This document shows, in pieces, positions 6,641 to 63,025 of a stretch of 64,000 nucleotides of DNA. The first letter of the stretch is position 1. Each line of letters opens with the position of its first letter. Source of the DNA: Myxococcales bacterium (GTDB lineage Bacteria > Myxococcota_A > Polyangia > Palsa-1104 > JAEUJZ01). The translations under genes and the position numbers were made by a program. Location of the stretch: positions 8,355 to 72,354 of the forward strand of contig JAEUKB010000009.1 of assembly GCA_016794365.1 (NCBI GenBank), written 5' to 3'. A model generated the notes under the pieces. It was not told the DNA's origin. It worked only from the letters and a program-made list of their open reading frames with translations, and searched no databases.

Positions 6641-6643
6641 GAC

Positions 6644-7600: not shown

Positions 7601-7664
7601 TCCGACAACGGCGCGCAATCCGTCTGCGCTCCCGCTATGCTGTACAGCAGAAGGAGGTGAGCGA

Positions 7665-8891
7665 ATGGACGCGATCTACATCATCCTGGCCATTCCGGTT
7701 TTCATCCTAAGCATCCTGATCGAGCTAGCGTACGACCGCTATCGACGCACCGGGCTGTACAACTTCGCAGACACCATTTCATGTCTAAGCTGCGGGGTGG
7801 GACAGCAAATCCTTCTGCCGTTTACCGGCATGCTGGGTCTGTGGGTCTATCAGGTCGTTCAGGCGCGCTGTGGACTCTTTACGATCTCGCCGAGTGCGCT
7901 GTGGGCGTGGGTCGTGATGTTCCTGATCGATGACTTTCTGTACTACCTGTACCACTGGGGATCGCATCGGGTGAACATCCTGTGGGCGACGCATGCAGTC
8001 CACCATCAGAGCGAGGAATACAACCTCTCTGTGGCCCTGCGGCAGAGCTGGTTTACTTCGCTGACAAGCTGGGTGTTTTACCTGCCGCTGGCGCTGCTTG
8101 GCTTTCCGCTTCTCATGTTTGTGATCGTGCGGACCTTCAACACGCTGTATCAGTTCTGGATTCATACGCGCGCGGTCGGAAAGCTCGGGTTTCTGGAGTC
8201 CTTCCTCAACACGCCGTCCCACCATCGTGTGCATCACGGAATCAATCCCAAGTACATCGATCGGAATCACGCGGGCATCTTGATCATTTGGGACAAGCTG
8301 CTCGGGACGTTTCAGCAGGAAGAGGAAGAGCCGGTCTACGGAACGGTGAAGCCGCTGGCGAGCTTCAATCCGGTGTGGGCCAACTTCGCAGAGCTAGAGC
8401 GGCTGTGGGACATCTCGTGTCGGACCCGGCGGCTGCGTGACAAGATCTGGATCTGGTTTGCGCCGCCAGAGTGGCATCCCGCAGACCTCGGTGGCGTGGT
8501 GGTGATTCCGCAAGCGAGCCGCGCGACCCAGCGCAAGTATCAGGTCAGTCAGCCGCTCGGCGTCAGCCTGTACACCGTCCTCAGCTTTGCGGTGCTGCTT
8601 GCGGCCAGCACGCTGTTTATCTACATCGCACCCAATCTCTCGCCCGCGCTACAGCTTCTGTGTATTGCCCACTTGGTGGTGGGACTTGCTGCATGTAGTG
8701 CGCTGGAAGAAGGAAAGTCTTGGGGAAAGACCGTCGAGCTTATGCGCTTTGTGGCGCTGCTCGGATCGCTGCCGCTCATTCCGGCTGTGTATCAGCTGGG
8801 CGTGCTGACGACGATCGCGGTACACCTCACGCTGTTTGCGCTGCTGCGACGTGGCAAGGCGCTGTCTTTGGACCAGGTGTCCCCGCTGTAG
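7665..8891 (+). CDS. Fatty acid hydroxylase / sterol desaturase superfamily membrane enzyme
   Basis: Three histidine boxes: HWGSH, HAVHHQSEEYN and HHRVHHG. Multiple TM helices. Confidence 0.8.
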   Translation: MDAIYIILAIPVFILSILIELAYDRYRRTGLYNFADTISCLSCGVGQQILLPFTGMLGLWVYQVVQARCGLFTISPSALWAWVVMFLIDDFLYYLYHWGSHRVNILWATHAVHHQSEEYNLSVALRQSWFTSLTSWVFYLPLALLGFPLLMFVIVRTFNTLYQFWIHTRAVGKLGFLESFLNTPSHHRVHHGINPKYIDRNHAGILIIWDKLLGTFQQEEEEPVYGTVKPLASFNPVWANFAELERLWDISCRTRRLRDKIWIWFAPPEWHPADLGGVVVIPQASRATQRKYQVSQPLGVSLYTVLSFAVLLAASTLFIYIAPNLSPALQLLCIAHLVVGLAACSALEEGKSWGKTVELMRFVALLGSLPLIPAVYQLGVLTTIAVHLTLFALLRRGKALSLDQVSPL

Positions 8892-46377: not shown

Positions 46378-47982
46378 TTATAGGAAGGCTGGATCGCGGT
46401 GGACTCCGAACTCTTCGCGGAAGACATCACAGACTTCGCCCAGCGTAACGTGAGCGCGCACCGCATCGAGCACTGCAACCATCACGTTGTCGCGATGACA
46501 GTCATCTCCGCGACAGGCGCGACGTAGCTCGTTCATGGCTCGATCGACCTGCGCAGGATCGCGACGGCTGCGTAGATCTTTGACCCGCTCAATCTGGGTC
46601 TTTTCCACAGTGGAGTCGATCTTGAGCGTCGGAATTCGATCGCCTTCTTTTCCTGCGTAGCGATTCACACCAACGATCACTCGCTCTCCACCATCGACGG
46701 CGCGCTGGAAGTGATAGGCAGAGTTTGCGATCTCACGCTGCGGATATCCGTCTTCCACGGCGCGGATGATTCCGCCCAGATCATCGATCTTGCGGATGTA
46801 GGCCATCGCGCGCTCTTCCATGTCGTCGGTGAGCTTTTCGATGAAGTAGCTTCCACCAAGCGGATCGGCGACCGCAGGAATGCCCGATTCCTCTGCGATG
46901 ATCTGCTGGGTTCGGAGCGCCAACGTCGCCGCATCTTCCGTCGGGAGCGCATACGTTTCATCGTAGGAATTGGTGTGCAGGCTCTGGGTTCCACCGAGCA
47001 CTGCGGCCAGCGCCTGAATCGTCGTTCGCACCACGTTGTTGAGCGGCTGCTGCGCCATCAGCGACACGCCGGCGGTCTGGGCGTGCGTACGCAGAATCCA
47101 AGAGCGCGGATTTTTGGCGTGGAAGCGCTCGCGCATGACCTTGGCCCAGATGCGACGCGCCGCCCGGAACTTGGCGATTTCCTCGAAGAAGTCGTTGTGA
47201 ACGTCGAAGAAGTACGACAGCCGAGGCGCAAAGGAATCGACATCAAGTCCGGCATCGATTCCCATCTGGACGTAGCCGATTCCGTCGGCCAGCGTAAACG
47301 CCAGCTCTTGCACTGCGGTCGCTCCGGCCTCGCGGATGTGATAGCCACTGATGCTGATGGTGTTCCACAGCGGCATCTCTTTGGTGCAGTACCAGAGCAT
47401 GTCGCGCATGATGCGGATCGCCGGACGGATGGGGCTGATCCACTCCTTTTGCGCGATGTATTCCTTGAGCATGTCGTTCTGGAGCGTGCCGCGTAGCTGG
47501 CTTGGCTTTACGCCCTGGCGCTCGGCGTTGACGATGTAGCAAGCGAGCAGATAGACCGCCGGAGCATTGATCGTCATCGATGTGGTGACATCCGCGAGCG
47601 GAATCCCATCGAACAGTCGCGCCATGTCTTCGACGCTGGCGACGTTGACGCCTTCGCGACCGACTTCCCCGAGTGAGCGCTCTGAGTCCGGGTCATAGCC
47701 CATCAGCGTCGGCATATCGAACGCCGTCGAGAGCCCCGTCTGTCCTTCCTTCAGCAGGAAGTGGAAGCGACGGTTTGTGTCTTCGGGTGTACCGAAGCCA
47801 GCAAACATGCGCATCGTCCACAGCTTGCCTCGGTACATCGTTTCGTGAACGCCGCGCGTAAACGGATACTGTCCGGGCTCGCCGATTTCTTCGTACGGAC
47901 GCACATCGTGCGGTCCGTAGTGGTTCTTGAGCGGTATGCCGGACATGGTCTCGTAGCGGCGGGTTTTCGTCGGGTCAGCCAT
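46378..47982 (-). CDS. Methylmalonyl-CoA mutase-family catalytic (TIM-barrel) subunit lacking a B12-binding domain
   Basis: ~534 aa from [18 protein letters not shown]; conserved MCM substrate-domain blocks ([38 protein letters not shown]). The protein ends without a C-terminal Rossmann/B12 module. Confidence 0.8.
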
Positions 47983-48014
47983 AGCGCGAGTTTGCTCTGC
48001 CCTCGCCGGGTCCG

Positions 48015-51000
48015 TCAATACACAGACCGGTTCGCCGTGCGAGCCCAGACGCCTCGGCCTTCTTGCCACAGTCGCAGCGCCCGCCGTGCCAGCTCGATCT
48101 TGCGCTGCATGTGTAGCTCATCGTGGAACACCGTCGAGACCATCGTTCGACTGACTTTGTAGGTGCGACGCAGTCGATCGCGGCCCAAGTCGCCGATTCG
48201 CGGGGTGGGACTGGTCATCGATGCGGTCTGGCCTCCGTTTGAGTGGACGACCGCCGACTGAAGCACGGGCGGAATCGCAAAGCCCGGTGAACTGCTTCCC
48301 GGCGGATTTCCTTCGGTTGTCAGGTATTCCGCTTCGTCGCTGACCAGATAGAACGTGTTGGTCAGATCACGGACGATGCGACGCACGGCTTCATGGTTAA
48401 ACGCCGATACGAAGTCTTCGTCGTGATGTGCGATTCGCTGGCGATCGCGCGCATCAAGCGTCTGAAACCACAGGTGAACGTACTCGACGGCGGTATCGAT
48501 GGTAAACCAGGGCTCATCGACGAGACTGAGCAGCACGAAGCTACACTCTGGCCCGAGCATGTACATGCCATTTTCGCTCTGTAGCGCCGCGCGCTCTTCG
48601 GCATAGACCTTTTCCAGCGCCAGCAGCACGTCGCGATCGGTAATCTTCTGTTCTTCTCGACGGGAAGATCGCAGCCGCTCGTCGATGCTCTGAATGATGA
48701 GCGCGCCGCAGTGCTGGAGCCAAGCCGGAACCCGGAACGTCTTGTCGAGGAGAAGCTGCTCGACCGCGTGCGATTCAAAGCGCAGACCCAGACGGGCAAA
48801 CGGCTCACGCACCATGCGCTCGGCACTGGACTCGTCGAGCGGACCCAACAGCCGCAGCTTGGCAAAGTTGAGCAGCGGACCAAACAGATCCCAGCGCGCT
48901 TCGACCAGCTCTGCGTGACCGGCCAAGATGACGCGACAGACCGCGCCACCGTGAAGCAGCAGTGCCGACGCCGAGCGCAGCTCTTCCAACAGCGGAGACT
49001 GACGGCGCAGCTCCGGCGGGGTCGTCAGTCCTTCAATCAGCCCGTCCACCACGTCATGCGGCAGATCCAAGCTGCTCAGGCTTTCCTTCAGCTTCGTCGT
49101 CGCCACCTTCAAAATCGGCGGCGTTCCCGGCGGCATCAGCGACGCCAGTGCTTGACCAATCGTCGCTGCTTCGCGCCACTCACCCAGCAGATACGCGCGC
49201 CGCTCGGTGCGCAGGATCGTGTCAATTTCGTCGAGAACAATCGCCACGCTGCGATCAGGAAACTTGCGCGTCCACAGATCGACGACCGCACGCAGCGGCG
49301 GCAGCGGCTCTCCCAGCGCGAAGCCAGCCTGCGCTTTTTGCGGATCCAGGTCTTCAAACAGCTCCAGGATCATTGACTTGAGCAGCTCACGGCTCGTCGG
49401 TGCGGTCGTGTAGTCCATGCCGCGCGGAATCACCCGATAGCCTTGCTGTTCCAGTTCAAAGCGCACACGCTGAAGCAGCGAGGTCTTGCCGATCTTGCGC
49501 GGCCCGACGACCAGGAAGTTTTCCTGACGCTGACCACGAATCTCTTCGAGCAGCGAGCGACGACCGTAGAACATCTCCTCGATCAGCTCTTGGTTGGCCA
49601 GGCCCATCTTCGAGCGGAACGGCGACAGCGCTGCATACGAAGCCGCTGCTGCCAGACGACGAATCAGCTCTTCGACGGGATTGTCGTGCAGCGCCGCGTG
49701 CTGAATGTCGGTGATATCAATCGCTGCGACGTGAAACAGGTTCCGGCTCCACGACAGCACCTCGGGGGACAGCTCTGGCACGATCACAATCGCGGACAGC
49801 GACGTATCGCTGATCGTCGCTTCAATGCCCGCAAACGACGCATCCGAGCGAGCGAGCGGATTGGGCCCCGAGCCACCACTTAGCATCGGCAAGCGCTTGC
49901 GGAGATCGATCTGGACTTGTTCGAGCGTGCCGCGATCCGGCTGACTCGACGGTAGATACAGCACCACGCGCTTGAGCCACGGAAGCTGACGCTTTTCCCG
50001 AAAGCGAATCTGCACCGAGCGCAGGCTGACGGCGCTGAGATCCGCACTGCCATCTTTGCTGGTTCCATCGACCAGATCGAGTCGGAAATAGCGCGCCACC
50101 GCCTCGACAAAGCGCGGCTCTTCTTGGCCATCGACCCACTTGCGACACGAGCGCGACAGATCCAGAAACTCTTGCCAGCGACTCTGACCGCCTTGCAGGT
50201 TGGGACGATTCCAGCCGAGCACCGCTCGAACCTGCGCCGCGTTGCCACCGAGTGCGCGATCGACGCCCGCCGCATCCCACAATGGCAGCCCGCGCGTCAG
50301 GTTTCGTCCGTCGATGGTGTTGGTCAGTCCGACTTCACCTTCGACGACACCGAGCAGCGTCCGCAGCCACTCGCGCGCTGGCGGCGAACAGAATGCGTAA
50401 AACACCCGATCGCCGCTGAGCTTGTGATGGCTGATCAGCCCGAGCGCCGTCAGATCGCCCGCCATCTGTTCCAGCCAGCGACCACTTGCCTGCTCACGCG
50501 CACTTGGATCTTCCAGCGGGGATCGTCCTCGCAGCCGAGGCCGCGCTTGCTTCAGATACGTCCACAGCACGCTGCGTGAGTCGTGCAGGCTGCCTCGGAT
50601 GCGTACTTTTTTTAGCCACATCACGCGGTTCAGATCGTCGATGGTGCGCTGCTCGATCCGCACGCCTGCCGAGGCCACCACTTTGCTCGTCGGAAGCCGA
50701 TCCTTTCCAGAGATCGAATACACCGGCTGATCGACGACCATGCCTGCGCGCAGATCCGCGACATCGAGATCCACCGAGTCACTACACAGCGCCGCTAGAT
50801 ACAGCCGATGCCCGAGAGGAAGTGCGCCCCACAGCGTCGATAAAAAGGTTCCAACCCGCGCTTCAAAGGCGCTCGGCGACAGCGGCGCGCGACTTCGCTC
50901 ACGCAGCGCTTGCTCGAGCAGCGGCAGACACTCGGCGCACAGCCGCAGATCGGTGCCGGTGATGTCAATCAGCGTGCGAACCGCTGACTGTGCCGTCGAG

Positions 51001-54000
51001 GGAGTGCTCATTCCCGGCAGCCCCGGACCACTCTGCGCGGACAGCGAGCCTCCGTCGCGATGATGCAGCAAGTTGAGCAGCGCTTGTTCCAGCTCGGTGC
51101 GCATTCGTTCGTCGCTGCGCTGCTGCGAAAGTGGGTCCGCCACCACATCCAAGTCCAAGAGCTGAACCGTGCGCGGCTGCTGAAGCTCCGGCGAGGAACC
51201 GACGGAACCACTGCTATAAGGCAGCGTCTGAAGCAGAATCGCCGCCGCCTGTGGAGACACGAGCAGCAGCACGCGGCCTCGATAGGCGAGAGCAATGCGC
51301 GCACCCAGCATGTAGAGCTGACGCAGCTCGCTGTCTTCCAGACGGGCTCGCTCGGCCAGCTCTGGCAGGCCCAAGATGATCAGCCCTCGACTTGCGGTTC
51401 CCGTCCCCGACACCGGCGCATCGGCCACCGCGCGCACCACTGCATCGACGGTATCCAGACGATCCGCACTCGGCAGCCCAAGCAGCGTCCCGAGCCGCTG
51501 ACCGATCTGCTGCACCACCTCGCGCAGCGTCGGCGTCATCTGTCGCTGCGTGGTCATCGTCTGCGCGCCACTGCTCGGTGTGCGCACCGCGACGTTCACC
51601 ATGCGCCAGTCTTCCAGCGTATCGAGCGGACGCTCTGGCCAGTCGAGCCCCACCGCTTCAGCGAGCAGCTCATGTGCGTGGGCCGGAAACGCCGTCGTCA
51701 GCGCCACCGCCGACTGCGCCGGACGGATGCGCTCGAGCAGATCTTGCTTATGAACGGCAAACAGCGTCGGGAGACGCTCGCTGAAGCTATCGAACAAGGC
51801 CCGCGCCAGCGCCCGCGCTTCCCGTCGGAACTGTCCTTCAATCGTGCGCTCGGTTCGCTTGTCTCCATCGTGAGACAGCTCAATCTCGATCCGATAGCGC
51901 AGTCCGTCGGCAGCCATCGCGGCGGGACACTCGATGACCAGGCCCAGCTCTTGTCCGGGCTCCAAATCCACTGCGTCGGGATCGAGCACGCGCGCGCGCA
52001 CTTCCCGAGGCTCTACTTGCCTAACCGTCAACAGCACGCCATGCGCAGTCCGAGGCGCATCCGCCGCCAGCAGCACCGCATAACGCAGCACGCGTCGTCC
52101 CTCGGTGATGCCTAGATCTGACACCAGCCGTACGTCGAAGTCTGGCTCGGTGCGCAGCCGGGTTGCTTCCTCGCGCAGGACTTGCCACCACACCGTCAGT
52201 AGCGCGACGACGGTGGCTTGCGGACGAACCCGCAGCATTCGCGACACAAACGCGCCGGTGTGCTGTGCTGGCGGCTCTTCCGAGAGCTGCTGAAGCAGCT
52301 TCATCCGAATGCCGTTGCGATGCTGCTCGACCTGTTCTGCGACTTCATCGAGCGTGTGCGCGAGCTGCGCTTTGTTGTTTTTGCGGTCCATGTCCTGAAG
52401 GGCCGACAGCAAAAACTGCTGCTCACTGAGGAACAGCTCTTCGTCGAGAAGTCCCCACGCTTCGTCGCGATAACGATAGGACAGGTGCTCACTCGAGAGC
52501 TGATGATGACTGCGCAGCGACAACAGCGCGCGATCCACCGCTTGAGGCTGTAGCGACGCGAGCAGCTCCGCGATGCTGGTCACGTCGAAGATGCGCAGCA
52601 CACCCTGAACCATTTCGTGCAGTGCCCACGCATCGGTTGGAACATTGTCGATGCTGAGCGGCAGCGCCGATCGCGTCAGCTCGTCGGAAAGCCGCTCGTA
52701 ATACATCTGATCGAAGCCATTTTCGACGGCGACCTCGAAGCGCCAAGCCAGGCTCTCTCCGGCGGCGATGCTGGCGCTGACCTCATCGTTTTCATCCGAG
52801 CCAATCGTCGGCAGCCGTGGTCCCCAGCGTCGTGACACACCGAGCAAGAACGCACGCACCTCGGGATCGGGCAGGATCTCGGGCTGACACATGGCCTCGA
52901 TGACTTGATGCGGCAGATACAGCCGAACCCGTCCCAGATCCCCGGCCAAAAAGATGCGTTCCCAGCGCAGCGCCGAGCGCAGCAGCAGCGCCAGGTTGGT
53001 CAGCAGAAAGCGACTCGGCAGCGTCGGACCCACGGCTTCCAGCACCGCGACGATGTTGCGGAAAAACGTCGGCTCTGCGTCGTCGAAGAGCTGCGCACGA
53101 TCAAGCCGCTGGAGGTGCCGCAAAAACAGCGCCGCGACGCCATCGACGGTCAGCGGCCACGGAACCGGACGCGTATCAAGCCGCGCGTCGTAATACAAAA
53201 TCAGCTGCGGCAGCCACAGCGACAGCTCATCAATGTGTTCGGGACGAACGTGCGCTTCGATGCACTGGAGCAGATCGCCGCGCACCGCCAGCGGATCTTC
53301 GCAAAACTGCACCAGCTTCCCGAGCAGCTCCCGAGCGAGCCGCGACTGCTGCGCGTCGGCACCACTTCCCGCTCCACCGAGTGCAATCGGCAGCAACGAG
53401 TCAAAGAGCTGCGCCACCAGCAAGCGATGACGCGGCGGACGCGGCAATGGCCATGCAGCCACGTCGAACACCTCGGAGCGTCCCGTCGGCTTGGGCGGCA
53501 GCTCTCCGCCGGACTCGACATCCCCTTGCAGCATCAGCCGACACAGGTGCAGCACGCTCGCCACCGCCGGAGTTCCTCGCTCAAGCTTCGGCTTATTGGT
53601 CAGCGGCAGACGGCTCACGCTCGTCACCGATGGAACTTTCGGCTCCGACGAAGTGTAGATCGAACCAGCGATTCGTCCCTCGCGCGCGTTGCGCAGCAGC
53701 TCTCGCATCGCGACGGCGCGAATGTGCGGTCCCAGCCCGCGCAGCGCCGCGCGCAGCAGTCCCACCCGAGAGCCCGCCGCCCTGGTCCCCAGCTCGAGCA
53801 GTCGCTGGATGCTCTGTCCGTGATCGTCGTTCGGATGCGCTTCCCAGCTCGTCAGCACGCCGCCTGACAGGACAATCAGCAGTCGGAAGCCACCCTCGGC
53901 CATCGGCCTACACATCATTCGCTGCGGCGTTCCTCCCGCTGCGAGCCGCGTCACTTCCTGTCCGTCGTGGCGGAAGTCAATCGCGATGACGTGGACTTGC

Positions 54001-56771
54001 TCGTCCTCGGTGCCAATCGCCAGACACGGCACGCCGAACACACCTTCGGGCACAAAGCACAGCGCCGAGATGCCTTTGGGCAACAGATACTGCGCGTGCA
54101 GCCGCAGCGAGTCCGCTTCAACGTGCAGCACTTGGACTTGTCCCGTCGTCGTTCCAACTGCAATCGTAGTTGCTTCTTCGTCGAGCGCTGCGCAGTACAC
54201 TCCCGCCGGAGACGGAGCCCACAGCGGCTTGTCTCCCGGTCGCTGAAGCTTGATTCGCGCCGACGACAGATACAGCGATCCGCCCGTCGTCGAGACCACC
54301 GCAATCAGATCACTCGGCAGCAGCGTCGATCGCAGCCGCAGTCCACCACCGTGCGAGTCGAGCACCAGCACTTGCGGACGCGCGCGCTCTGTCGTTCCGG
54401 GCAGACGCAGCACCAGCGACTCGACCTCGCTGCGAATGATGGACTCCGTGCCGCTGTTTTCCTCGACGTGACAGTCATAGCCAATCGGCTCTACCGAGAC
54501 ACCACCGCAGCGAGCTTCCCCTCGCAGAAACAGTCTTCCGTCGCTGAGCGGCGTAAACACCATCAGTCTGGTGTCGCCCGCTTCTTCCGCACCGACGATC
54601 ACCGTTGGCAAAATACAGTCGCCCTCTTTCCAGAGCCGTCGCGCTTCGACGAAGCGAACCTGACCGGGAATCTTGATCTCGGGCCCACCTTGGGACGGCA
54701 GCCACGGCCACGCCATGATCTCGGACTCTGGCGTCTTGCCGTCCCAGGTTGTGTGCGCGGGCTGAAGCGGCTCAATGCGCAGCGCACGATGACGACCGAT
54801 TCCGACGACATAACAGCGCTGTGGCCAGACATCGGCGGGCATCGTCGGGGTCGGTCCCGACAGATCCAGCGGATCAAGCGCCGTCGATGACAGATCGAGC
54901 CGCTCCAGCTCGATGGAAAAGCGATCCGTGCGCAGCTCTTCGGTCAGACCGATGGCGCGTAGCACCCGAACCACCACGTCGCTGTTTTCATCAAGCCGAG
55001 GCCGTTCTCCGTCGGGAAGTGACTGAAGATGTTCCAGCCGCGTCTCTGACTCCGTCGCCAGTGTGCTGGAATATTCGCGCGCGCGCAGGCTGCGGACATT
55101 GAGCAGCTTGCGAAGCTCCGGCGGCGGCTGATCGACGCTGAGCATGTCGTCTTCGTCGCTCGCTTGGCTGGGAACCAGCAGCCAGTACTGCTCGAACAGC
55201 CGACGAGAGATGCGATCGATCTGATGACGAACCAGACGCGGGGCACCCAGGTAAATCTCAACCAGCTCGGCCATCACCGTCCGTGCGAGCTGTAGCTTGG
55301 TCGTCGGATCAAACAGTCCCGACGGAATCACCTCACCGGGGCCTCCTTCTTGAAGCTGACGCGCCGATAGCAGCGGGAGCGGTCCCGTCGGTGTCGAGCG
55401 TCCTTCCAGCGTCGCAAGCTGCGGCAAGTGCAAAAGCAGAAAGTGCTCCATCGTCACCACCGCTTCGCGCTGGGCTCGCTCGGGCAGGGTGTGCCAGCCG
55501 GGCTGTCCGAGGGTAAACCAGCGCACCAGCTCGACGACGGCGTGGGTGGCGGGACCGTTACTTTCCAGCACGCGACTCAGCAAATACAGCTGTACCGCAG
55601 GGTGCGCTTCGTGACGGGGCGGTGCCAGCTCTAGGAGCTTGTCGCTCGCGCGGTGTCCCAGCGCCGAAAAGAGCTGACGACAGCGCTGGTTGAGCAGCGG
55701 CGGCTCGGTCAGCTCGTAGATGCGCATGCCACCGTCGATTCCACCGAGTACCAAGTCGATCCGTCCGCTTGACTCGACATCGGCCAGCGTCATCGACGAA
55801 AACAGAAAGCCTGCGTCCATCCGCCACAGCACACCCGAGTGCGACTGCGACAGATCCATCGCGAACACATAGCCGAACGACGTTCCACCGAGCAGCAGCC
55901 CTCGGCCTGGCATTCCGCGATCGGACGGTCGTCGGACTTGGGAATAGGCCAGACAGACAAAGCGCCACTGCGGAAACAGCAGCGAGCGCAGCCTTCCGTC
56001 GCGACTGATGCGCTGAAGTCCGCCGCGCGCGTAGGCAACGACCAGCTCATCGTCGGCGAGCACCATGTCGGTGACTTCGCCGGGCAGAAACGAAACCTTG
56101 CCAAAGTCAGTGCTGACGGGACTGCGCGGGCCGATGCGATCGTCGATGATCTCAACCCACAGGCGTCCGTCGTCGGGACGACCGCGTAGGACCGGGACGC
56201 GACCGACCTCGCTGGAATCGCCAATCAGCCTGATTTCACCGAGCCCAAGTGAGCTGGTGCTGCGGTGTTCCAGCTCGGCGACATCCCACTGCTGACCGTC
56301 GCAGGTGAGCTTCAGCTCGCGATAGACCGCGCTGCCGTCGTTTTCTTCGACGGAAGTGACGATCGCTTCCTGACGATGAAAGACGCCAAATGGACTGAGG
56401 CTGATCCCGATCAATCGTCCGCGATAGCGATGGCTGCCGATGATCCACGACGCGACCTCGCCACTTTCGGTCTGTCGGACGGAAAAGCGTGGCGTGTGGA
56501 CGTTGCGATCGCTGTCGATGACCAGGATTTCGTTTTTGCCGTCTCCGTCGAGATCGGCGACTCGGACCAGCAACAGCTCGCGGCCAAAGCGCAGACGGGC
56601 ACGGAGCAGCGCGGGACGATTGCGCAGCCGACACAGCCGAGTCAGCTCACGCGCGATCTCATCCGAGCTGGTCGGTATCGGGCCTTGCGCCAGCTTGACC
56701 AGCGCGCGGTACTCCTCGACATCCTGCGTGGACAGCGGCGTTTCAATGCGACGGACACGCGGTTCAGCCAT
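48015..56771 (-). CDS. Giant multidomain protein (2918 aa): N-terminal FG-GAP/VCBS-like beta-propeller region, second WD40-like propeller, long alpha-helical region, C-terminal ORC/PF01637-type P-loop ATPase plus ~400-aa tail
   Basis: Single uninterrupted ORF. No signal peptide. Ca-binding-type repeats [15 protein letters not shown] and [20 protein letters not shown]-like blades ([31 protein letters not shown]). ATPase module: [36 protein letters not shown] (Walker A, + strand ~49485-49511) and [12 protein letters not shown] (Walker B, + strand 49213-49248). Confidence 0.8.
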
Positions 56772-56807: not shown

Positions 56808-57869
56808 TTATTCGGGCGACAGGATGCGAACGGGGGTTTCGGCCAGGTCGATGCGAAGCGTTTCACTGCGTCCAGGGATGAGATCGCCGCCGCTCTGCAT
56901 GGGGACGGGCTGAGAGACGCGCAGCTCGACGGCATCGCACAGAAAGTCGTGTAGCGACGGGCTGCGATAGTCGCCGCGTAGGACAGCGGGCAGGTGTGCC
57001 AGGGTTTCGCTTGCGCTTGCGTCGGTGCAGCGGAGGTGGAACTTGTCGCTGCGTACATCGGCAAACGGGAAGATTCGGACGCCAAAGCCATAGCATGGCA
57101 CCGTCGCTGCGCCCGCCAGCGTGCAGCGACCGCGATACAGCACCGTGCCTCTTGGCAGGGGCGTGTCGTCGGGCTTTCCGTCGAGTCCAATTGCGTATGC
57201 TGGGCCACCGACGTTGACGACCTCGACTTCGGGCAGCTTGCGCATCACAAAGCGTGGCACCGAGCGCAGCGCCACCGCCAAGGCATAGCGCAGCGGGGAA
57301 CCAATCAAGCGACCGAGCCCCATCGCATCCAGGGCTTTGGTGGTCGCGCCGTAGTCTTCCAAAATCTGCGAGTCGAGCCCGGTTCCTGCAAACGGTGACA
57401 GCCGACCATTGACGCGCAGCAGCGGTAGCTCTCGGGTGGGACTGAGGACGGTCTGGGCGCGCTCAAGCTGGGCGTGGATGCCGCGCAGCGTCGAAGGAAT
57501 GCCCTGATAGTAGCCAATTGCGTTGCCAGTTCCGAGCGGTAGCACTCCGACGCGCGGCAAGGGCCGACCACTGCGCAGACAAGCTTCGCGCAGGTCGTTT
57601 AGGCAGCAGACGAATGTGCCGTCTCCGCCGCCGAACAAGATGGTGTGAAACGGACCTTCAGCCAGCTGCGTGGCGATCTGACGGCTGTGCTCGAAGCTCT
57701 CGGACAGAAACAGGTGCTGGCTTGGGTGAAGCTTTTCCAGACGCTGCACCATCTTGCGAGTGACCGCTCGGGCGTTGCGGTTCAAGACCACGGCCACGGC
57801 ACCGAGCGGGTTGCCATTCACCATCGAATCGTGCGCCAGCGAGGCGGAACGAGAGGACTGAAGCTGCAT
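56808..57869 (-). CDS. Diacylglycerol-kinase catalytic-domain family lipid kinase (YegS/LCB5-like)
   Basis: DAGK_cat motif ILFGGGDGTF; conserved GTGN and C-terminal beta-sandwich; 36 bp upstream of the giant gene. Confidence 0.8.
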   Translation of the reverse strand: MQLQSSRSASLAHDSMVNGNPLGAVAVVLNRNARAVTRKMVQRLEKLHPSQHLFLSESFEHSRQIATQLAEGPFHTILFGGGDGTFVCCLNDLREACLRSGRPLPRVGVLPLGTGNAIGYYQGIPSTLRGIHAQLERAQTVLSPTRELPLLRVNGRLSPFAGTGLDSQILEDYGATTKALDAMGLGRLIGSPLRYALAVALRSVPRFVMRKLPEVEVVNVGGPAYAIGLDGKPDDTPLPRGTVLYRGRCTLAGAATVPCYGFGVRIFPFADVRSDKFHLRCTDASASETLAHLPAVLRGDYRSPSLHDFLCDAVELRVSQPVPMQSGGDLIPGRSETLRIDLAETPVRILSPE

Positions 57870-58059: not shown

Positions 58060-59889
58060 TTAGCGCAGGCTGGCTGTGACGCCGCGCAGCATCGCCGCTG
58101 TTCTCTCAAGGACTTGACGCGCATCGATGATGGCGACGCTCTCGCCGCGAATGATGGCGATGCGAGCACGCTCGATGGCGGATCGGGCCCGGCGCATGGC
58201 ATCCAGGCCCAGCTCGCTGCCCGCGACGGCTTGTTCGGCACGAGGCAGCATGCCCAAGATGTCGCTGATGAGCTGCTCGGCGCGGTTCTGATTGCGAGAA
58301 AGTTCGTCGCTGCGCTGGGTTTCCAGCTCGTAGCTGCCCATCGGGCTCTTGCTACCGTCGGTTTCGCTGCTGAGCAGCGAGGCGCTGAGTCGAAAGGTGT
58401 GCTGTTCGCGACGCTGCTCGCGCAAGTCGGTGGCCGTGACGGTCAGATCGCCGTTTTGCGCCGCTGAAAAGCGTACCTCGACCTCGGTGTTTTCGCGCGA
58501 CGCAGCCAGGAAGCCTGAATAGACAAACTCACCGAGGATTTTGCAGTCGCTGGCTTGCTCGCTGTCCCCTTCGACGACAACCAGCCGCAGCGCCGTCTGA
58601 TGATCGCGCGCGGTGGTGAAGATGTGCGCCGCTTCATGGGGAAGCTGCGTTCCCGCCGAGATCAAGCGAAATACTTTGCCACCACCGACGAGAAGACCCA
58701 AGTGATGCGGGCTCAGCTCAAACGTCGTGCTGGCCGACGGTGTCTGCGAAAGTGCGGCACCTTGCAGCGCGGCTCCGATGGCCAGTGCTTCTTCCGGTGT
58801 GACGCCGCCCATCGGAACGCGACCGAACAGCTCGGTCAGGGCTCTTTGAATGCGCGGAACCCGGGCCATTCCACCGACGACAACGACTGCATCGACCGAG
58901 CGTGGCTCGACGCCAGCTTCGGACAGTGCGCCTTTGCAGAGCTGAATGGTTCGCTCGACGAGATCTTCGGTCAGCTCCTCGAACTTGGTGCGATGAATGA
59001 CGCGATGAAGGTGCAGCGGCTCGGATGTTCCCGTCGAGATGATGAACGGAACCTCGATGGTTACTTCTTCATCGACGGACAGATCACACTTGGCCTTTTC
59101 CACTGCGTCGCGAAGTCGCTGAAGCGCTGTGCGATCCTGACGCAGATCGATCTTGTGATCTTTGGCAAAGCCGAACACCAAGTAGTCCAGTAGCCGTCGA
59201 TCGAAGTCCTGTCCGCCGAGGAATGCGTCGCTGGTGCTGGCGCGGATCTCGTGGACACCGCTGCTCATTTCGAGGAGCGCGAAGTCGAAGGTGCCGCCGC
59301 CGAGATCGTAGACAGCGACGCGCTGGGCGCGATGTTCGCTGGTGCCAATGCCATGTGCGAGCGCGGCAGCGATGGGATCGGCAATGATCCGCAAAACTTC
59401 CAGTCCAGCCAGGCGTGCTGCGTCACGTAATGCAATGCGCTGTGCGTCGGAAAATGCCAGCGGTGCGGTCAGAACGGTGCGGCTGACTGGCTGGCCCAGG
59501 TACGCTTCCGCCGCTTTCTTTAGGTCGAGCAGCAGCGCGGCGACCAGTTCGGTGACGGCATACTGTTCGTTGCGCAGGACGACGCGCAGCTCATCGCTTG
59601 GGCCGGACGTGATGCGATACGCGACCATCTCGGAGAGCTGACGGACCTGCGGATGACCGAAGCGCAGCCCGAGCAGTCGCTTGAGTGCCGTCGCGGTGTG
59701 CTCGGCATTGAGAACGCACTGACGGCGAGCCGTCTGTCCAATGATTCGCTGACCTTGATCATCGATGGCCAAGACGGCTGGAAACGCGCGCTGACCGCTG
59801 GGGCCTGGCAGCACCAGTGGGACGCCTCCTTCGACGATGGCCACGCACGAGTTGGTGGTGCCCAGGTCGATGCCGATGACGCGCTCCAT
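58060..59889 (-). CDS. Non-canonical Hsp70-family chaperone (DnaK paralog)
   Basis: Phosphate-1 IGIDLGTTNSCVA and phosphate-2 VYDLGGGTFDFALLE; complete NBD plus SBD-beta; a divergent C-terminal lid; no EEVD. Confidence 0.85.
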   Translation of the reverse strand: MERVIGIDLGTTNSCVAIVEGGVPLVLPGPSGQRAFPAVLAIDDQGQRIIGQTARRQCVLNAEHTATALKRLLGLRFGHPQVRQLSEMVAYRITSGPSDELRVVLRNEQYAVTELVAALLLDLKKAAEAYLGQPVSRTVLTAPLAFSDAQRIALRDAARLAGLEVLRIIADPIAAALAHGIGTSEHRAQRVAVYDLGGGTFDFALLEMSSGVHEIRASTSDAFLGGQDFDRRLLDYLVFGFAKDHKIDLRQDRTALQRLRDAVEKAKCDLSVDEEVTIEVPFIISTGTSEPLHLHRVIHRTKFEELTEDLVERTIQLCKGALSEAGVEPRSVDAVVVVGGMARVPRIQRALTELFGRVPMGGVTPEEALAIGAALQGAALSQTPSASTTFELSPHHLGLLVGGGKVFRLISAGTQLPHEAAHIFTTARDHQTALRLVVVEGDSEQASDCKILGEFVYSGFLAASRENTEVEVRFSAAQNGDLTVTATDLREQRREQHTFRLSASLLSSETDGSKSPMGSYELETQRSDELSRNQNRAEQLISDILGMLPRAEQAVAGSELGLDAMRRARSAIERARIAIIRGESVAIIDARQVLERTAAMLRGVTASLR

Positions 59890-59968: not shown

Positions 59969-62900
59969 ATGTTAATAGACAGCCACATGGCAGAAGTTCC
60001 ATCGTCGGTGGGCTCCGCAAGCGCTGCATCCAGCAAGCTGGCGTCCGCTACGGACCCACATCGCACGGAGCCGGGCGCACAGGCTGACGCGACGACGCCA
60101 TCGGTTCGGATGGTCCGCGAGCTGCTTTCCTCGCTTCAGAAGCCGATTGAGGAGCTGTGCGCGCGCGGTCTACCAAACCTTTTGGACCCAGAAGGCGAAG
60201 AGCGGCTGCGGCTGCTTGCTCACCAAATGACGGATTCGGCAAAGGCGCTGGCGACTGCGTTTGAAAAGAAGAGTCAGCGCTCGGGCAGCGATGGCGATCG
60301 GGAACGCTGTCAGAAGATCGCGGCGGATCTGACGCTGCTCGCGCAGCAGACGACGCGGCTGGGCTCGCTTCCTCTCGGAGAGCGTCAGCGTGTGGTTGCG
60401 CTCGGTCAGCGGCTCTGTCTGAGCATTTCGATCTATCTTCCAGAGCATCGGGCGAATCGGGCAGACCGTCATTCGGTGAGTGAAGTGGCTCCATCGCCGC
60501 TGGCGCGTCCGATGCAAGATTCAGCGCTGCGCAGTCCGTCTCGATTCGCGTCCAGACCGACGGCCAAGCCCGCTGTCAAAGTGGAAGCAAACGTCGAAGC
60601 CAAGCCTGCTGGCATCATCGCTGCGTCGGTTCCGTCAAAGGCTGCTGGAAAGTCCGCTGGAACGTCTGGCGACGATGCAGAGGCTGCGCTGGATCCGCTG
60701 CTCGGCCCGCTGCTCGGTCAGCCTGGCGTTGGTCCTGTGACGGCAGAGCGACTGGCGGATAAGGGACTGCATCGCGTCATCGATGCGCTGTACTTTTTGC
60801 CAAAGCGCTACGACGATCTGCGGCAGGTGGTTCCCGTCGGTCAGCTTCAGCCTGGTGTGCTGCAAGCGACGATCGTGCTGGTCGAGCGAACGCGCGTCGT
60901 GTGGGCGAAAAAGCGCTTTTTGGAAGTGCTGTTTCGCGGCGAAGACGGAAGCGAGCTGCTCGCGCGCTGGTTTTACTTCCACGGCGGCTATCAAAAGCGA
61001 CTGCTACCGGGAAAACGATTTTTGCTCTCGGCGACACCCAGCAAGTTTCGCGACAGCTTGCAAGTGACCCATCCCGAGCTGGTCGATTTGCCGCCGCGCA
61101 GTGAACAGCAGCCCGACGGAGTGATGCCCGAAGGCGCTGGTCACATTCGCATTCGCTATCCCGACATCGACGGAGTTCCGGCCAGGCTCGTCGAAAAGCT
61201 CTGTCAAGGACTTTGCAGCCAGTATGCCGAGCTGGTTCCCGATGGTGTGCCCGCGCAGCTTCTCCACCGGCTGAGCCTGCCGCTTTTGGCCCAGACGCTG
61301 CGCGATCTGCATCTTCTGCCCGCCGAGACGACGCCAGAGCTGCTACTGCGACTCAACGAAGGACTGGCTCCGGCGCAGCGTCGGCTGATCTTCGAGGAGC
61401 TGTTCTTTTTACAGCTAGGTCTGCTACGTCGCCGACGAGCGATTGCGGCGGACGATGCGACGGTGTGTCCGACCAGTGATGATTCGCTGTCGTCGCTGTG
61501 GGCGGTATTGCCGTTTTCCCCGACCTCTGCCCAGCAGCGCGCGATTGCCGAGATTCGTGGCGATCTCAGTCAGCCTCACCCGATGCAGCGTCTGCTTCAC
61601 GGCGATGTTGGCTCGGGCAAGACGCTGGTGGCCTACGCGGCGTGTGAGCTGGTGATGGCGAGCGGTCATCAAGCTGCGGTGATGGCTCCGACGGAGATCT
61701 TGGCCGAGCAGCATCACAAGACGCTGCGAGTGTGGGCTTTGGCGACGGGACGTAAGCTGGCGCTACTGACCGCGACGACACCGAAGACGGCGCGCAAGAC
61801 CACGCTGGCGCTGCTTCAAGCGGGACGCTTTGCCGAGGTGTGGCGACTGCACGAGAGCACCGGCCAGCCGCTCGACCGAGAGTCGATCTTGGCGATGCTG
61901 CGCGTCGGGTTTTTGAACATGGTCGTCGGAACGCACGCGCTCATTGCCGATGCAGTCGAGTTTCAAGATCTGGCGCTGGTGGTCATCGACGAGCAGCATC
62001 GCTTTGGTGTCGGTCAGCGTGCCGCGCTGCGACGAAAAGGTCGGCAGCCGCATATCTTGGTGATGACCGCGACGCCGATTCCTCGGACGCTGGCGCTGAC
62101 GCTGTACGGAGACTTGGATGTCAGTCAGCTCGATGAGCTGCCGCCGGGACGAACGCCGCCTGTGACGAAGGTTCTGTCGGGCAAGACCGGCGAGCCGCGT
62201 GCGCTCACCGCCGTGCGCAAAGCTGTTTCGGAAGGTCGTCAGGCCTACTGGGTCTGTCCGCTTATCGAGGACAGTGAAAAGCTAGAGCTATCGAGTGCGA
62301 CGGCGCGACATGCTGCGCTTCAGTCAGCGCTGCCCGAGCTGCGGGTTGGCCTGGTTCACGGACGCTTGGGCAGCGACGAACGAGACGATGTGATGGATCG
62401 CTTCCGTCGCCGAGAGCTGGATGTCTTGGTTGCGACGACGGTGATTGAAGTCGGCGTCGATGTGCCCAATGCCTCGCTGATGGTGATTGAGAGCGCCGAG
62501 CGCTTCGGCCTGGCACAGCTTCATCAGCTTCGCGGTCGCGTCGGTCGAGGCAGCGGCAAGAGCCTGTGTCTGCTTTTGCACGGAAGCGCGCTGTCCGACG
62601 GATCGGGCTCCGTTCATCATGATCCGCTGCTCGATGAAGACGAGCCTGCGCCGAAAAAGCCGAGCAAGCGCCGCAAAGTCAGCGAAGAACCAGCAACGAC
62701 AGCTTCTACCAAACATGCTGCTGCGACGACGGCTCCCTCGGCGGCCCATCGCTTGGAAGTGGTGGCGCAGACCAGCGACGGATTCCGTCTGGCCGAAGCC
62801 GATCTGCGCATTCGCGGTCCGGGCGAAGTGCTGGGCACTCGACAGTCGGGACTGCCGCCGCTGCGCTTTGCGGATCTGCTGCGTGACATCGATCTGCTGA

Positions 62901-63025
62901 CGATTGCTCGTCGAGAAGCCGCTGCTTTGCTGGCGCGCGATCCTGAGCTGGTCCGGCCCGAGCACTCCGTCACAAGTCGCGTGCTGGCGGAGCGCTGGGC
63001 ACACTGCGACCTGACGCTGGAATAG
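59969..63025 (+). CDS. recG: ATP-dependent DNA helicase RecG with long low-complexity N-terminal extension
   Basis: Wedge domain; helicase motif I LLHGDVGSGKTLVA; motif II VIDEQHRFG; motif VI QLHQLRGRVGRG; RecG C-terminal TRG region. An Ala/Ser/Pro-rich extension of ~240 aa precedes the wedge. An alternative start exists at ATG 59987. Confidence 0.85.
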   Translation: MLIDSHMAEVPSSVGSASAASSKLASATDPHRTEPGAQADATTPSVRMVRELLSSLQKPIEELCARGLPNLLDPEGEERLRLLAHQMTDSAKALATAFEKKSQRSGSDGDRERCQKIAADLTLLAQQTTRLGSLPLGERQRVVALGQRLCLSISIYLPEHRANRADRHSVSEVAPSPLARPMQDSALRSPSRFASRPTAKPAVKVEANVEAKPAGIIAASVPSKAAGKSAGTSGDDAEAALDPLLGPLLGQPGVGPVTAERLADKGLHRVIDALYFLPKRYDDLRQVVPVGQLQPGVLQATIVLVERTRVVWAKKRFLEVLFRGEDGSELLARWFYFHGGYQKRLLPGKRFLLSATPSKFRDSLQVTHPELVDLPPRSEQQPDGVMPEGAGHIRIRYPDIDGVPARLVEKLCQGLCSQYAELVPDGVPAQLLHRLSLPLLAQTLRDLHLLPAETTPELLLRLNEGLAPAQRRLIFEELFFLQLGLLRRRRAIAADDATVCPTSDDSLSSLWAVLPFSPTSAQQRAIAEIRGDLSQPHPMQRLLHGDVGSGKTLVAYAACELVMASGHQAAVMAPTEILAEQHHKTLRVWALATGRKLALLTATTPKTARKTTLALLQAGRFAEVWRLHESTGQPLDRESILAMLRVGFLNMVVGTHALIADAVEFQDLALVVIDEQHRFGVGQRAALRRKGRQPHILVMTATPIPRTLALTLYGDLDVSQLDELPPGRTPPVTKVLSGKTGEPRALTAVRKAVSEGRQAYWVCPLIEDSEKLELSSATARHAALQSALPELRVGLVHGRLGSDERDDVMDRFRRRELDVLVATTVIEVGVDVPNASLMVIESAERFGLAQLHQLRGRVGRGSGKSLCLLLHGSALSDGSGSVHHDPLLDEDEPAPKKPSKRRKVSEEPATTASTKHAAATTAPSAAHRLEVVAQTSDGFRLAEADLRIRGPGEVLGTRQSGLPPLRFADLLRDIDLLTIARREAAALLARDPELVRPEHSVTSRVLAERWAHCDLTLE

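Follow-up and report, generated by a model that had tools for sequence, protein, structure and literature searches.

The window, a stretch of 64,000 nt, contains a giant gene whose product ends in a complete ATPase, located behind propeller-like and helical domains. This ATPase, present as a single copy in the window, spans residues ~2343-2918 and forms one complete P-loop module with a core, a helical lid and a winged helix. By analogy with related proteins, the module probably acts (roughly 55%) as a STAND/Orc-type nucleotide switch that terminates the giant protein and is fed from the N-terminal propellers and solenoids. The reversed order, with the ATPase last and variable domains first, is the rule in the clade to which the module belongs.

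A preliminary description of this DNA, whose flagged span (48700-49600) encodes residues ~2391-2691, had already placed an ATPase at the C-terminus after propellers and helical repeats. This layout was borne out, with the N-terminal folds read from weak Pfam matches and AlphaFold2 (AF2) models. The giant protein was predicted to be cytoplasmic. KAP P-loop NTPases, named earlier as an alternative identity, match PF07693 and have TM helices inserted in the P-loop domain; the window protein gave no PF07693 match, and no TM-like segment was found along its length. Full-length orthologues (n = 16) ranged from 2,802 to 3,037 aa, with 57-95% identity to the window protein (53-95% in the initial search). 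The features of the gene and its product are listed in Table 1.

Table 1. Features of the giant gene and of the protein it encodes, with positions in the window.
Feature	Position (nt)	Strand	Residues	Remarks
Giant gene	48015..56771	-		2,918 aa plus stop
Beta-propeller-like region 1	55692..56594	-	~60-360	FG-GAP/ITFG2/BBS7-like; limits approximate
Beta-propeller-like region 2	53817..54824	-	~650-985	WD40/EML-like
Alpha-helical, solenoid-like region	52149..53804	-	~990-1541	990-1130 from sequence only
Beta-sandwich domain	51831..52139	-	1545-1647	AF2 pLDDT 72-88
Alpha/beta region	49752..51824	-	~1650-2340	AF2 mostly pLDDT <60
Helical lead-in	49518..49745	-	2343-2418	SPF...FYGR..LLEEI signature
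Walker A	49479..49505	-	2423-2431	GPRKIGKT at 2423-2430
Strand 3 and Walker B	49221..49247	-	2509-2517	VLDEID at 2512-2517; D2514, E2515, D2517
Helical insertion between strands 3 and 4	48954..49217	-	2519-2606	
Strand 4, GPLLNF motif, strand 5	48834..48944	-	2610-2646	CRVILAGH in strand 4; LGPLD with strand 5
Helical lid	48579..48833	-	2647-2731	ARC1-like
Winged-helix domain	48132..48551	-	2741-2880	
Basic C-terminal helices, protein end	48018..48131	-	2881-2918	pLDDT 86-95 up to ~2909

The module opens with a helical lead-in, which reads SPY..G.V..MFFGR..EL in relatives and includes, in the giant protein, a string of 13 residues beginning at residue 2401. The strings quoted in the preliminary description were all recovered where it had put them: this one at 2401, GPRKIGKT at 2423 and the Walker B strand string at 2509. 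Moreover, the Walker motifs were not degenerate, since every one of their residues was invariant in a 17-sequence alignment of the window protein and the 16 full-length orthologues. The G, K and S of Walker A were invariant even in distant relatives, and the D, E and D of Walker B were invariant or nearly so among relatives. The helical insertion that follows terminates at Arg2599, which is conserved across the clade; residues ~2527-2591 of this insertion are specific to the giant family, and the alignment with relatives falls into two blocks, one on either side of the insertion region. Further on, the GPLLNF motif of the giant protein corresponds to SPLxNF in relatives. The clade alignment contained no clade-wide conserved Arg between strands 4 and 5 and no GDAR-type sensor-2 motif in the lid; Arg2626 is conserved in the giant family only. 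A lid motif of 11 residues is the counterpart of tGG.P.LIQ..C in relatives and is of the GxP type; where relatives read tGG.P, the window protein reads TFRVP, with the Pro kept and the Gly residues lost. The winged helix is split by a disordered insertion (residues 2819-2863; AF2 pLDDT <50), downstream of which the last strand of the relatives' winged helix ('y....p') aligns, and only ~40 helical residues come after it. The AF2 model of the module (pLDDT 83, pTM 0.79) had a core of five strands, to which the lid and the winged helix are joined.

It had been proposed that a further ~400 residues follow the ATPase and might be winged-helix or effector domains. The count holds when taken from Walker B, but these residues are the rest of the ATPase module itself. 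A winged helix is present among them, whereas a separate effector is not, as the stretch runs from the helical insertion through strands 4 and 5 to the lid, continues with the winged helix and closes with a short helical tail. Within the giant protein, conservation was highest in residues 2351-2450 and 2601-2750 (0.92-0.96 identity per column) and lower upstream of the module (0.5-0.86). Because the Walker A and Walker B motifs are invariant and no other part of the protein is as well conserved as the module, activity is likely, and the module is apparently catalytically competent, judging from its sequence.

Several existing family models recognized the ATPase. The whole protein matched AAA_22 (PF13401) with an E value of 1.2e-6 and 29.3 bits, and the module alone with 32.2 bits, both above the gathering cut-off of 27. 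For AAA_16 (PF13191), the module alone reached 34.8 bits and exceeded the cut-off of 32.6, with 26.4 bits for the whole protein; for nSTAND1 (PF20703), the corresponding scores were 29.1 and 23.9 bits (cut-off 27.1), in a marginal and partial match that covered model positions 138-218 of 379. Since AAA_16 and AAA_22, and marginally nSTAND1, capture the module, the ATPase is no new type. The match of the window protein to ATPase_2 (PF01637) fell below the cut-off of 33.2 (13.2 bits, E 0.08). Among the relatives scanned, PF01637 was matched by 12 out of 39 (E limit 1e-4) and 20 out of 50 (E limit 1e-3), and nSTAND1 by 25 out of 39 and 40 out of 50 in two scanned sets. A search of PDB sequences with the module as a single sequence returned chance-level matches only. 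When the clade profile was used against the PDB, 2FNA (E 4.8e-20) and 2QEN (E 2.2e-10) were aligned over their entire chains, including the lid and the winged helix; 2QEN was also the first Foldseek match of the module model. Together with the Pfam scores, these matches far exceed what chance would give. These profile comparisons make homology to PF01637 clear at the level of the clade, even though the window protein itself falls below the Pfam cut-off. The kinship to the PF01637 'archaeal ATPases' and to ORC-Cdc6 that the preliminary description had read from the lead-in is supported, with 2FNA and 2QEN matching at full length and Orc1/Cdc6 coming next. The module is a member of the PF01637/nSTAND1 branch, between the Orc1/Cdc6 AAA+ proteins and the classical STAND NTPases.

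The STAND class of P-loop NTPases was reportedly set out by Leipe, Koonin and Aravind in 2004. Its members usually carry an effector, then the NOD, then C-terminal sensor repeats, and have neither an AAA+-type arginine finger nor a sensor-2 arginine. In the giant protein, Walker A follows GxxxxGK[ST], Walker B follows hhhhD[DE] and includes one more acidic residue, and a GxP-type helical domain is succeeded by a winged helix, as seen in the AF2 model and in the alignment with 2FNA and 2QEN. The tripartite order of the class was not observed, all repeat domains being N-terminal of the ATPase. The GxP-type lid and the conserved LGPLD, together with the lack of a conserved Arg between strands 4 and 5 and of a GDAR-type sensor 2, suggest that the module is STAND-like and not a ring AAA+ ATPase. 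The clade profile matched NB-ARC only marginally (E 2e-3 for 9H2L), and no Apaf-1, NLR or Avs structure occurred within the top 50 Foldseek matches.

Nearly all matches from word-indexed homologue searches were fragments of the giant family, to which the clade profile added a handful of relatives; an exhaustive phmmer search gave 958 cluster representatives (E <= 1e-3). Relatives include the short protein Hoch_5666 (WP_012830735) of the culturable Haliangium ochraceum and the Verrucomicrobiales protein MAS92468, which has the propeller, TM and ATPase arrangement. In 131 of the 139 nearest relatives, Walker A was located 280-360 residues from the C-terminus. The N-termini of relatives varied, with WD40 or Reg_prop propellers, TPR, REC or TIR domains. 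N-terminal Reg_prop and WD40 domains were found in 8 and 6, respectively, of 39 larger relatives, TPR in P0188 and P0190, and REC and TIR in short relatives, TIR in one of them. In many propeller-bearing relatives, Walker A was preceded at a distance of ~250 aa by one TM-like segment, frequently accompanied by an N-terminal hydrophobic segment, and these proteins look like periplasmic sensors. Since TM-linked propellers, TPR, receiver and TIR domains all precede the C-terminal module in the nearest relatives, input from the N-terminal side appears to be the norm among them. The more distant P0192 matched SIR2_2 and FGE-sulfatase, which would flank a centrally placed module. A second Myxococcota family of ~2,500 aa, detectable by profile-profile comparison only, proved colinear with the giant family across 2,145 aligned columns, at an hhalign probability of 99.6%. 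When the N-terminal 2,329 residues were compared by phmmer with 147 relatives, no shared N-terminal domain emerged.

The distinct, possibly novel clade suggested by the preliminary description is a coherent one, in which the module is as a rule C-terminal; the novelty does not extend to the ATPase type, which is known to Pfam. A generic AAA_16 module without conserved partners, which that description had named as a refutation, fits the AAA_16 score and the absence of partners, but not the clade-specific motifs or the positional rule, and the claim is thereby half refuted. A literature search for a STAND layout with a C-terminal NTPase returned nothing relevant, and the layout may have been described earlier.

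The evidence for propellers and helical repeats ahead of the ATPase was weak but consistent, and weaker than that for the ATPase itself. Pfam searches of 12 orthologous N-termini matched FG-GAP_3 in 12, Itfg2 in 8 and Beta-prop_BBS7 in 7 (best 8.8e-7) over propeller-like region 1, which also includes a DLDGDGKNE motif at residues 73-81; the window protein's own region scored below the Pfam cut-offs. BBS2_Mid gave a weak match as well, alongside the BBS7 and ITFG2 propeller models. Over region 2, Beta-prop_EML_2 was matched by 11 of the 12 orthologous N-termini (best 1.9e-5), and residues ~790-972 gave weak PDB profile matches to WD40 propellers (E 0.02-0.08); within the protein, conservation was lowest in the first half of this region (residues 651-850; 0.52-0.61). 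A profile of the whole protein matched only propellers in the PDB (E ~0.06). Residues 1130-1541 were modelled by AF2 entirely as helices (pLDDT 40-90). The AF2 model of residues 1130-2329 was of low confidence (pLDDT 58.9), and its fold search was informative for the beta-sandwich only, the best PDB matches of which were weak similarities to gamma-adaptin/GGA ear domains (E 3e-3 to 1e-2, TM 0.46-0.57). No family or PDB profile match was obtained for residues ~1650-2340 with Pfam, other family models, PADLOC or the PDB, and this region could hide an effector; none was detected anywhere in the giant protein by Pfam or by a second family-model search. The N-terminal domains are well conserved and not diversified, a pattern that agrees with a fixed partner or a scaffold no less than with a sensor.

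In the mechanism that we propose, the module would be ADP-bound and closed at rest, and a switch to the ATP-bound state would lead to self-association or to changed partner binding. The N-terminal propellers and solenoids would form a binding platform, serving as input, as scaffold or as both, and the output would be nucleotide-dependent assembly of this platform with no enzymatic effector. The C-terminal winged helix and the basic tail may bind nucleic acid or a partner. Analogy is the basis on which oligomerisation, nucleotide switching and a sensor role for the N-terminus are proposed. In a bolder and rather doubtful extension, the C-terminal module would define a hitherto unrecognized 'N-input' STAND-type class, ranging from TM receptors with periplasmic propellers to cytoplasmic giants of 2,500-3,000 aa. 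The signal or scaffold would then reach the ATPase from the side that holds the effector in classical NLR/Apaf-type proteins; in the Polyangia giant, the switch would drive the ATP-dependent assembly of a coat- or BBSome-like scaffold of propeller, solenoid and appendage, as part of core cell biology and not of immunity.

The scaffold function can also be considered as an explanation in its own right, namely a structural assembly of propeller, solenoid and appendage resembling coats or the BBSome, whose polymerisation on a membrane or other surface is regulated or timed by the ATPase. The consistent weak matches to BBS7, BBS2_Mid and ITFG2, the ear-like beta-sandwich, the long helical region, the high conservation and the core-genome behaviour all point that way. 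However, none of these similarities exceeds its family threshold, beta-sandwiches and propellers are widespread folds, the middle region was modelled at a pLDDT of only 58.9 and no membrane-binding element was identified; this explanation, which we regard as unlikely, overlaps with the nucleotide switch instead of excluding it. An Orc1/Cdc6-like AAA+ protein, whose ATPase and winged helix bind DNA or load a partner and whose N-terminal 2,300 residues tether it to a complex, seems quite unlikely. Orc1/Cdc6 structures did occupy Foldseek ranks 2, 5 and 7, matches 2-50 were mostly Orc1/Cdc6, ORC and RFC subunits, the clade profile matched Cdc6/ORC4 at 1e-9 to 1e-6, and the winged helix is terminal with a basic tail behind it. 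The Cdc6/ORC similarity was nevertheless confined to the part between the two Walker motifs, in contrast to the end-to-end matches with PF01637 proteins; TIGR02928 (Orc1/Cdc6) scored 14.9 bits against a cut-off of 181.3, the clade alignment showed neither a conserved Arg finger nor a GDAR-type sensor 2, and many relatives look membrane-anchored, unlike an origin-binding layout.

The giant family was found only in genomes of uncultured Polyangia/Myxococcota (18 MAGs), with one locus per MAG. The called neighbours were metabolic or housekeeping genes that varied by genome, with no recognized defence gene among them, and all-against-all clustering of ORFs from 22 loci revealed a Ser/Thr kinase, present in 4 loci, as the only shared neighbour. 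Upstream genes for Hsp70-like and diacylglycerol-kinase-like proteins and a methylmalonyl-CoA mutase gene downstream were syntenic only where the orthologue was at least 79% identical, and were absent around more distant orthologues; an Hsp70-linked system was rejected, synteny being limited to the closest genomes. These data bear on an anti-phage function, in which a reversed Avs/NLR-like STAND protein would sense an invader protein through its propellers, and ATPase oligomers would cause cell death or engage an effector in trans. nSTAND1 families have been described in conflict systems (PMC8195603), one short relative has an N-terminal TIR domain, P0077 overlaps and sits immediately downstream of a TIR-domain gene, and P0192 carries its SIR2_2 and FGE-sulfatase matches. 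The giant family, in turn, has no detected effector, no conserved partner and no recognized defence neighbour, and a scan of the whole protein with PADLOC-DB v2, which covers Avs, bNACHT and other known anti-phage STAND systems, returned no family at E <= 1. It is also lineage-restricted, the related giant family adjoins a ribosomal protein operon, and at L005, the one locus at which divergence was compared, the giant orthologue was 88% identical, against 88-91% for neighbouring housekeeping genes. We consider an anti-phage function improbable; the lack of a PADLOC match, the single locus per MAG and the housekeeping-like divergence at L005 argue against a mobile gene for defence. A decayed or generic P-loop remnant, or an ORF produced by faulty assembly or annotation, would agree with the marginal whole-protein Pfam scores and with homologues that all come from metagenome assemblies. 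It is hardly credible given 16 independent full-length orthologues of shared length and order, a module conserved more strongly than the rest of the protein, invariant catalytic motif residues and a confident AF2 model.

STAND/NLR analyses currently assume that the sensor comes after the NTPase, and a 2026 survey of 589 prokaryotic STAND clades sought sensors only in regions C-terminal to the NTPase (PMC13581612). A clade with a terminal switch and variable domains in front would escape such pipelines, because only C-terminal regions are extracted. The layout also raises the mechanistic question of how autoinhibition and release operate with nothing after the winged helix. A possible new route of transmembrane signalling is suggested by those relatives in which a propeller, a membrane segment and the ATPase seem to be joined. 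The giant protein, conserved and housekeeping-like, with a single locus found in each MAG of this uncultured myxobacterial lineage, is a candidate for lineage-specific cell biology and not for defence.

Among known proteins, SSO1545 (2FNA) and PABY2304 (2QEN) are spanned by the clade profile over their entire ~350 residues. They share an FF.RE.E lead-in, a G.RR.GK[ST]S Walker A and an LDEA Walker B, as well as SPL[FY] between strands 4 and 5, L.P[FL] after strand 5, a gG.PgWL lid and a terminal winged helix. Both are stand-alone proteins of ~350 aa, whereas the corresponding unit ends a protein of 2,918 aa here and includes an extra helical insertion of ~65 residues and a disordered winged-helix loop of ~45 residues. 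Archaeal Orc1/Cdc6 proteins have an AAA+-type core, a lid and a C-terminal winged helix in common with the module, which differs from them by the lack of an arginine finger and a sensor-2 motif in the clade alignment.

Apaf-1/AP-ATPases, NACHT proteins and Avs likewise combine a NOD-lid-winged-helix switch with propeller or helical repeats in one polypeptide. Compared with Apaf-1-type STAND proteins, the order is a mirror image, with the repeats before the ATPase, and the giant protein has no recognizable effector. Reg_prop/Y_Y_Y periplasmic-sensor hybrid two-component systems have a histidine kinase as output. P0036, P0071, P0077 and P0110 resemble these systems in their Reg_prop propellers, TM-like segment and cytoplasmic module, but the ATPase module replaces the histidine kinase; the window protein differs from them in having neither a TM segment nor a Reg_prop match. 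Finally, nSTAND1 shares the PY...FFGR lead-in and the P-loop style with the giant module. It is described as a central NTPase with an N-terminal adaptor or effector and C-terminal sensors (PMC8195603; bioRxiv 2023.09.22.558884), whereas in the giant protein and in 131 of its 139 nearest relatives the winged helix is the last domain, with nothing after it.

At its extreme C-terminus, the giant protein carries a complete, conserved and apparently competent switch module of the PF01637/nSTAND1 type. The protein, which has no TM-like segment, is the 2,918-residue product of a single minus-strand ORF (56771 to 48015), and the span 48700-49600, where the preliminary description had reported a P-loop ATPase behind repeat domains, corresponds to residues ~2391-2691. 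That observation was confirmed, and the motif strings quoted with it were found in the translation (a 13-residue string from residue 2401, GPRKIGKT from 2423 and a 10-residue string from 2509). Among 5.8 billion proteins searched, 18 clusters matched, 16 of them full length (2,802-3,037 aa, 53-95% identity); the sole name given was 'ATP-binding protein', and the sources were MAGs of Myxococcales or Deltaproteobacteria. When full-length orthologues were aligned, identity to the window protein per block was 0.5-0.86 across the first 2,350 residues and 0.92-0.96 in residues 2351-2450 and 2601-2750, with all residues of Walker A and Walker B invariant. The giant gene is genuine, and no part of its product is better conserved than the ATPase. 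With one genome per species scanned, the family was found in 18 MAGs, at one locus in each, labelled Polyangia, Myxococcales or Myxococcota (two merely Pseudomonadota, one Deltaproteobacteria); the 64-kb window holds a single copy of the module. The orthologue of one Polyangia MAG (L008, JBGANQ010000012.1, 2941-6240) contained two in-frame stops in the first 1,100 codons, for which a frameshift, pseudogenisation or misassembly could be responsible; its tblastn match was limited to residues 1-474.

When the whole protein was scanned against Pfam, AAA_22 exceeded its cut-off (E 1.2e-6), AAA_16 was also matched, nSTAND1 was matched partially (residues 2594-2676) and PF01637 merely faintly, as was Orc1/Cdc6 in NCBIfam. 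With residues 2330-2918 alone, curated cut-offs were passed by AAA_16 (34.8 bits versus 32.6), AAA_22 (32.2 versus 27) and nSTAND1 (29.1 versus 27.1). In a Foldseek search of the PDB with the module model, the Pyrococcus abyssi Walker-type ATPase 2QEN ranked first (E 2e-6, TM 0.59 on the target), followed by archaeal Orc1/Cdc6 (2V1U, 2QBY, 1W5T), ORC and RFC subunits; structures of Apaf-1, NLR or Avs proteins were absent from the top 50 matches. The profile built from the module and 45 distant relatives aligned with the whole chains of SSO1545 (2FNA, E 4.8e-20) and 2QEN (E 2.2e-10), while matches to Cdc6 and ORC4 (1e-9 to 1e-6) were confined to the Walker A-Walker B part, and an NB-ARC protein was matched at 2e-3. 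Because of these profile and Foldseek matches, the PF01637/Orc-Cdc6 neighbourhood proposed earlier is the correct one. The NB-ARC1-ARC2 arrangement is common to PF01637/Orc-Cdc6-type proteins, Apaf-1 and NLRC4 (PMC4599002).

The AlphaFold2 model of residues 2330-2918, whose input alignment took in distant relatives, was confident (pLDDT 83.3, pTM 0.79). Across these relatives, the elements kept were SPY..G.V..MFFGR..EL, vG.RRiGKTSLL, llDE.D, Arg2599 in the helix preceding strand 4, g.c.f..aG...Ly in strand 4 and sPl.Nf.....LgpLd; their lid motif, tGG.P.LIQ..C, is represented in the window protein by an 11-residue string. His2619, at the strand 4 tip, is a candidate for sensor 1. The motif comparison across the clade revealed neither a conserved Arg between strands 4 and 5, the AAA+ arginine-finger site, nor a GDAR-type sensor 2. 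Alignments of the relatives consisted of two stretches skipping residues ~2530-2606, and this helical insertion and the disordered winged-helix loop are specific to the giant family. Given the order of elements in the model and the relatives' alignment, the ~400 residues previously taken for possible added winged-helix or effector domains, a length counted from Walker B, are the remainder of one module, with no added effector.

Features of the giant gene, its C-terminal module (AlphaFold2 model) and neighbouring genes
Feature	Window position (strand)	Residues of giant	Remark
Propeller-like region	55692-56594 (-)	~60-360	
Propeller-like region	53817-54824 (-)	~650-985	
Beta-sandwich	51831-52139 (-)	1545-1647	
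Helical lead-in			first element of module
Strand 1		2419-2422	followed by P-loop
Strand 2		2445-2448	
Strand 3		2508-2514	with Walker B
Helical excursion		2517-2602	
Strand 4		2612-2618	
Strand 5		2638-2641	
Four-helix lid		2647-2731	
Winged helix		2741-2880	broken by disordered loop 2819-2863
Two last helices			after winged helix
Diacylglycerol-kinase-like gene (DAGK_cat)	56808-57869 (-)		directly upstream of giant
Divergent Hsp70-like gene	58060-59889 (-)		488 bits; upstream of giant
Methylmalonyl-CoA mutase, longest ORF	46378-48069 (-)		first 55 nt overlap the giant gene's end

Ahead of the module, consistent though weak Pfam matches were obtained in 12 orthologous N-termini, with FG-GAP_3 in all 12, followed by Beta-prop_EML_2 (11, best 1.9e-5), BBS2_Mid (9), Itfg2 (8) and Beta-prop_BBS7 (7, best 8.8e-7). 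PDB profile matches of residues ~790-972 were WD40 propellers (E 0.02-0.08). AlphaFold2 modelling of residues 1130-2329 was poor overall (pLDDT 58.9); in this low-confidence model, residues 1130-1541 were all helical, and the beta-sandwich (pLDDT 72-88) had gamma-adaptin/GGA ear domains as its best PDB matches, with weak E-values. Residues 1650-2340 had no family match. The proposed order, with propellers and helical repeats first, is thus supported, at lower confidence than the ATPase. With the same weak statistics, the combination of propeller, helical region and appendage-like sandwich brings subunits of the BBSome or of adaptors and coats to mind.

The extreme C-terminal position of the module is characteristic of its nearest relatives. 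An exhaustive phmmer search with the module returned 958 cluster representatives at E<=1e-3 (88 at E<=1e-10), and layouts were counted on 139 listed relatives with a placeable Walker A. In 131 of these, the distance from Walker A to the C-terminus was 280-360 residues (median 328), and only 3 had >420 residues after it; the part ahead had a median of 622 residues and reached at least 1,000 in 43. Among 39 larger relatives, N-terminal Reg_prop and WD40 propellers were found in 8 and 6, respectively; TPR repeats occupied this position in P0188 (Mycolicibacterium gadium) and P0190, and receiver, TIR or RapZ-like domains in a few short relatives, most of the short relatives scanned having no Pfam match there. 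Many scanned relatives of 1.4-1.6 kaa, including the propeller-bearing ones tested, exhibited a single TM-like segment ~250 residues ahead of Walker A, several with an additional N-terminal hydrophobic segment; the predicted topology is that of a sensor in the periplasm joined across the membrane to a cytoplasmic output. Among more distant relatives, the canonical order apparently returns: in P0192, residues 280-586 of 1,059 form a central module, and SIR2_2 and FGE-sulfatase are also matched. Two module copies per polypeptide were observed in eight relatives (P0032, P0033, P0051, P0058, P0064, P0076, P0083 and P0105), with WD40 propellers ahead of both copies in P0033. In an hhalign comparison, a second giant family (2,470-2,630 aa, named 'AAA family ATPase [Myxococcota bacterium]') aligned colinearly with that of the window across 2,145 profile columns (probability 99.6%, E 6e-24, a score derived partly from the common ATPase module), and phmmer detected no N-terminal similarity between the two.

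Upstream of the giant gene, on the same strand, lie the kinase-like and Hsp70-like genes, and downstream lies the mutase, an order seen only around orthologues of at least 79% identity (L004-L007, L017 and L019) and absent around more distant ones; ORF clustering of 22 loci brought out no other common neighbour except a Ser/Thr kinase in 4. Being confined to the closest genomes, the Hsp70/kinase arrangement probably reflects local synteny and no functional system. At L005, identity to the window was 88% for the giant N-terminus, 90% for the mutase, 88% for HflX and 91% for inositol-phosphate synthase; in this one comparison, therefore, the divergence of the giant is close to that of housekeeping genes. 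The true mutase start is probably further downstream than that of the longest ORF, because the Pfam domain begins at ORF residue 40; in the closest genomes, the giant and mutase genes may share a transcript. Divergent from the Hsp70-like gene, a 1,018-aa RecG-like helicase (59969-63025, +; DEAD, Helicase_C, RecG_dom3_C) begins with an extension of ~500 residues that matches no Pfam family. P0174, of the second giant family (2,505 aa, Myxococcota MAG GCA_046075485.1; L024, 8001-15518), adjoins the S10/spc ribosomal protein operon and is divergently transcribed.

The module would act as a nucleotide-dependent switch or oligomeriser, with its input, or a scaffold that it organises, attached N-terminally; the output of the giant would then be assembly or partner binding, with no enzymatic effector. 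Among the rivals, an immune receptor of reversed topology is disfavoured by the data for the giant family, in which PADLOC found no match on the whole window protein. In the wider clade, some proteins may be parts of conflict systems, because in a Verrucomicrobiales locus (L023) the Reg_prop-TM-ATPase gene of P0077 (MAS92468; 8001-12764) lies directly behind a TIR-domain gene (469 aa, 6595-8004) and overlaps its stop, which suggests that the two genes form a unit in which a TIR effector acts in trans; just upstream lie a radical-SAM gene and one resembling MbnB/TglH. An Orc/Cdc6-like, DNA-directed function of the module and a mainly structural, coat-like scaffold are the other rivals, and these the data do not separate.

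Of the earlier interpretation, the C-terminal layout and the PF01637/Orc-Cdc6 neighbourhood stand and the added effector does not; the giant is a new architectural variant of an already known kind of ATPase. No description of a C-terminal NTPase layout was found in the literature searched, whose incomplete coverage leaves room for an earlier one. In published accounts, nSTAND1 and other STAND NTPases are placed centrally with C-terminal sensors (PMC8195603; bioRxiv 2023.09.22.558884), and a 2026 survey of 589 prokaryotic STAND clades extracted only regions C-terminal to the NTPase as sensors (PMC13581612). SSO1545 served as the template for modelling the ATPase domain of IniR, a protein of canonical order, unlike the giant with its C-terminal ATPase.
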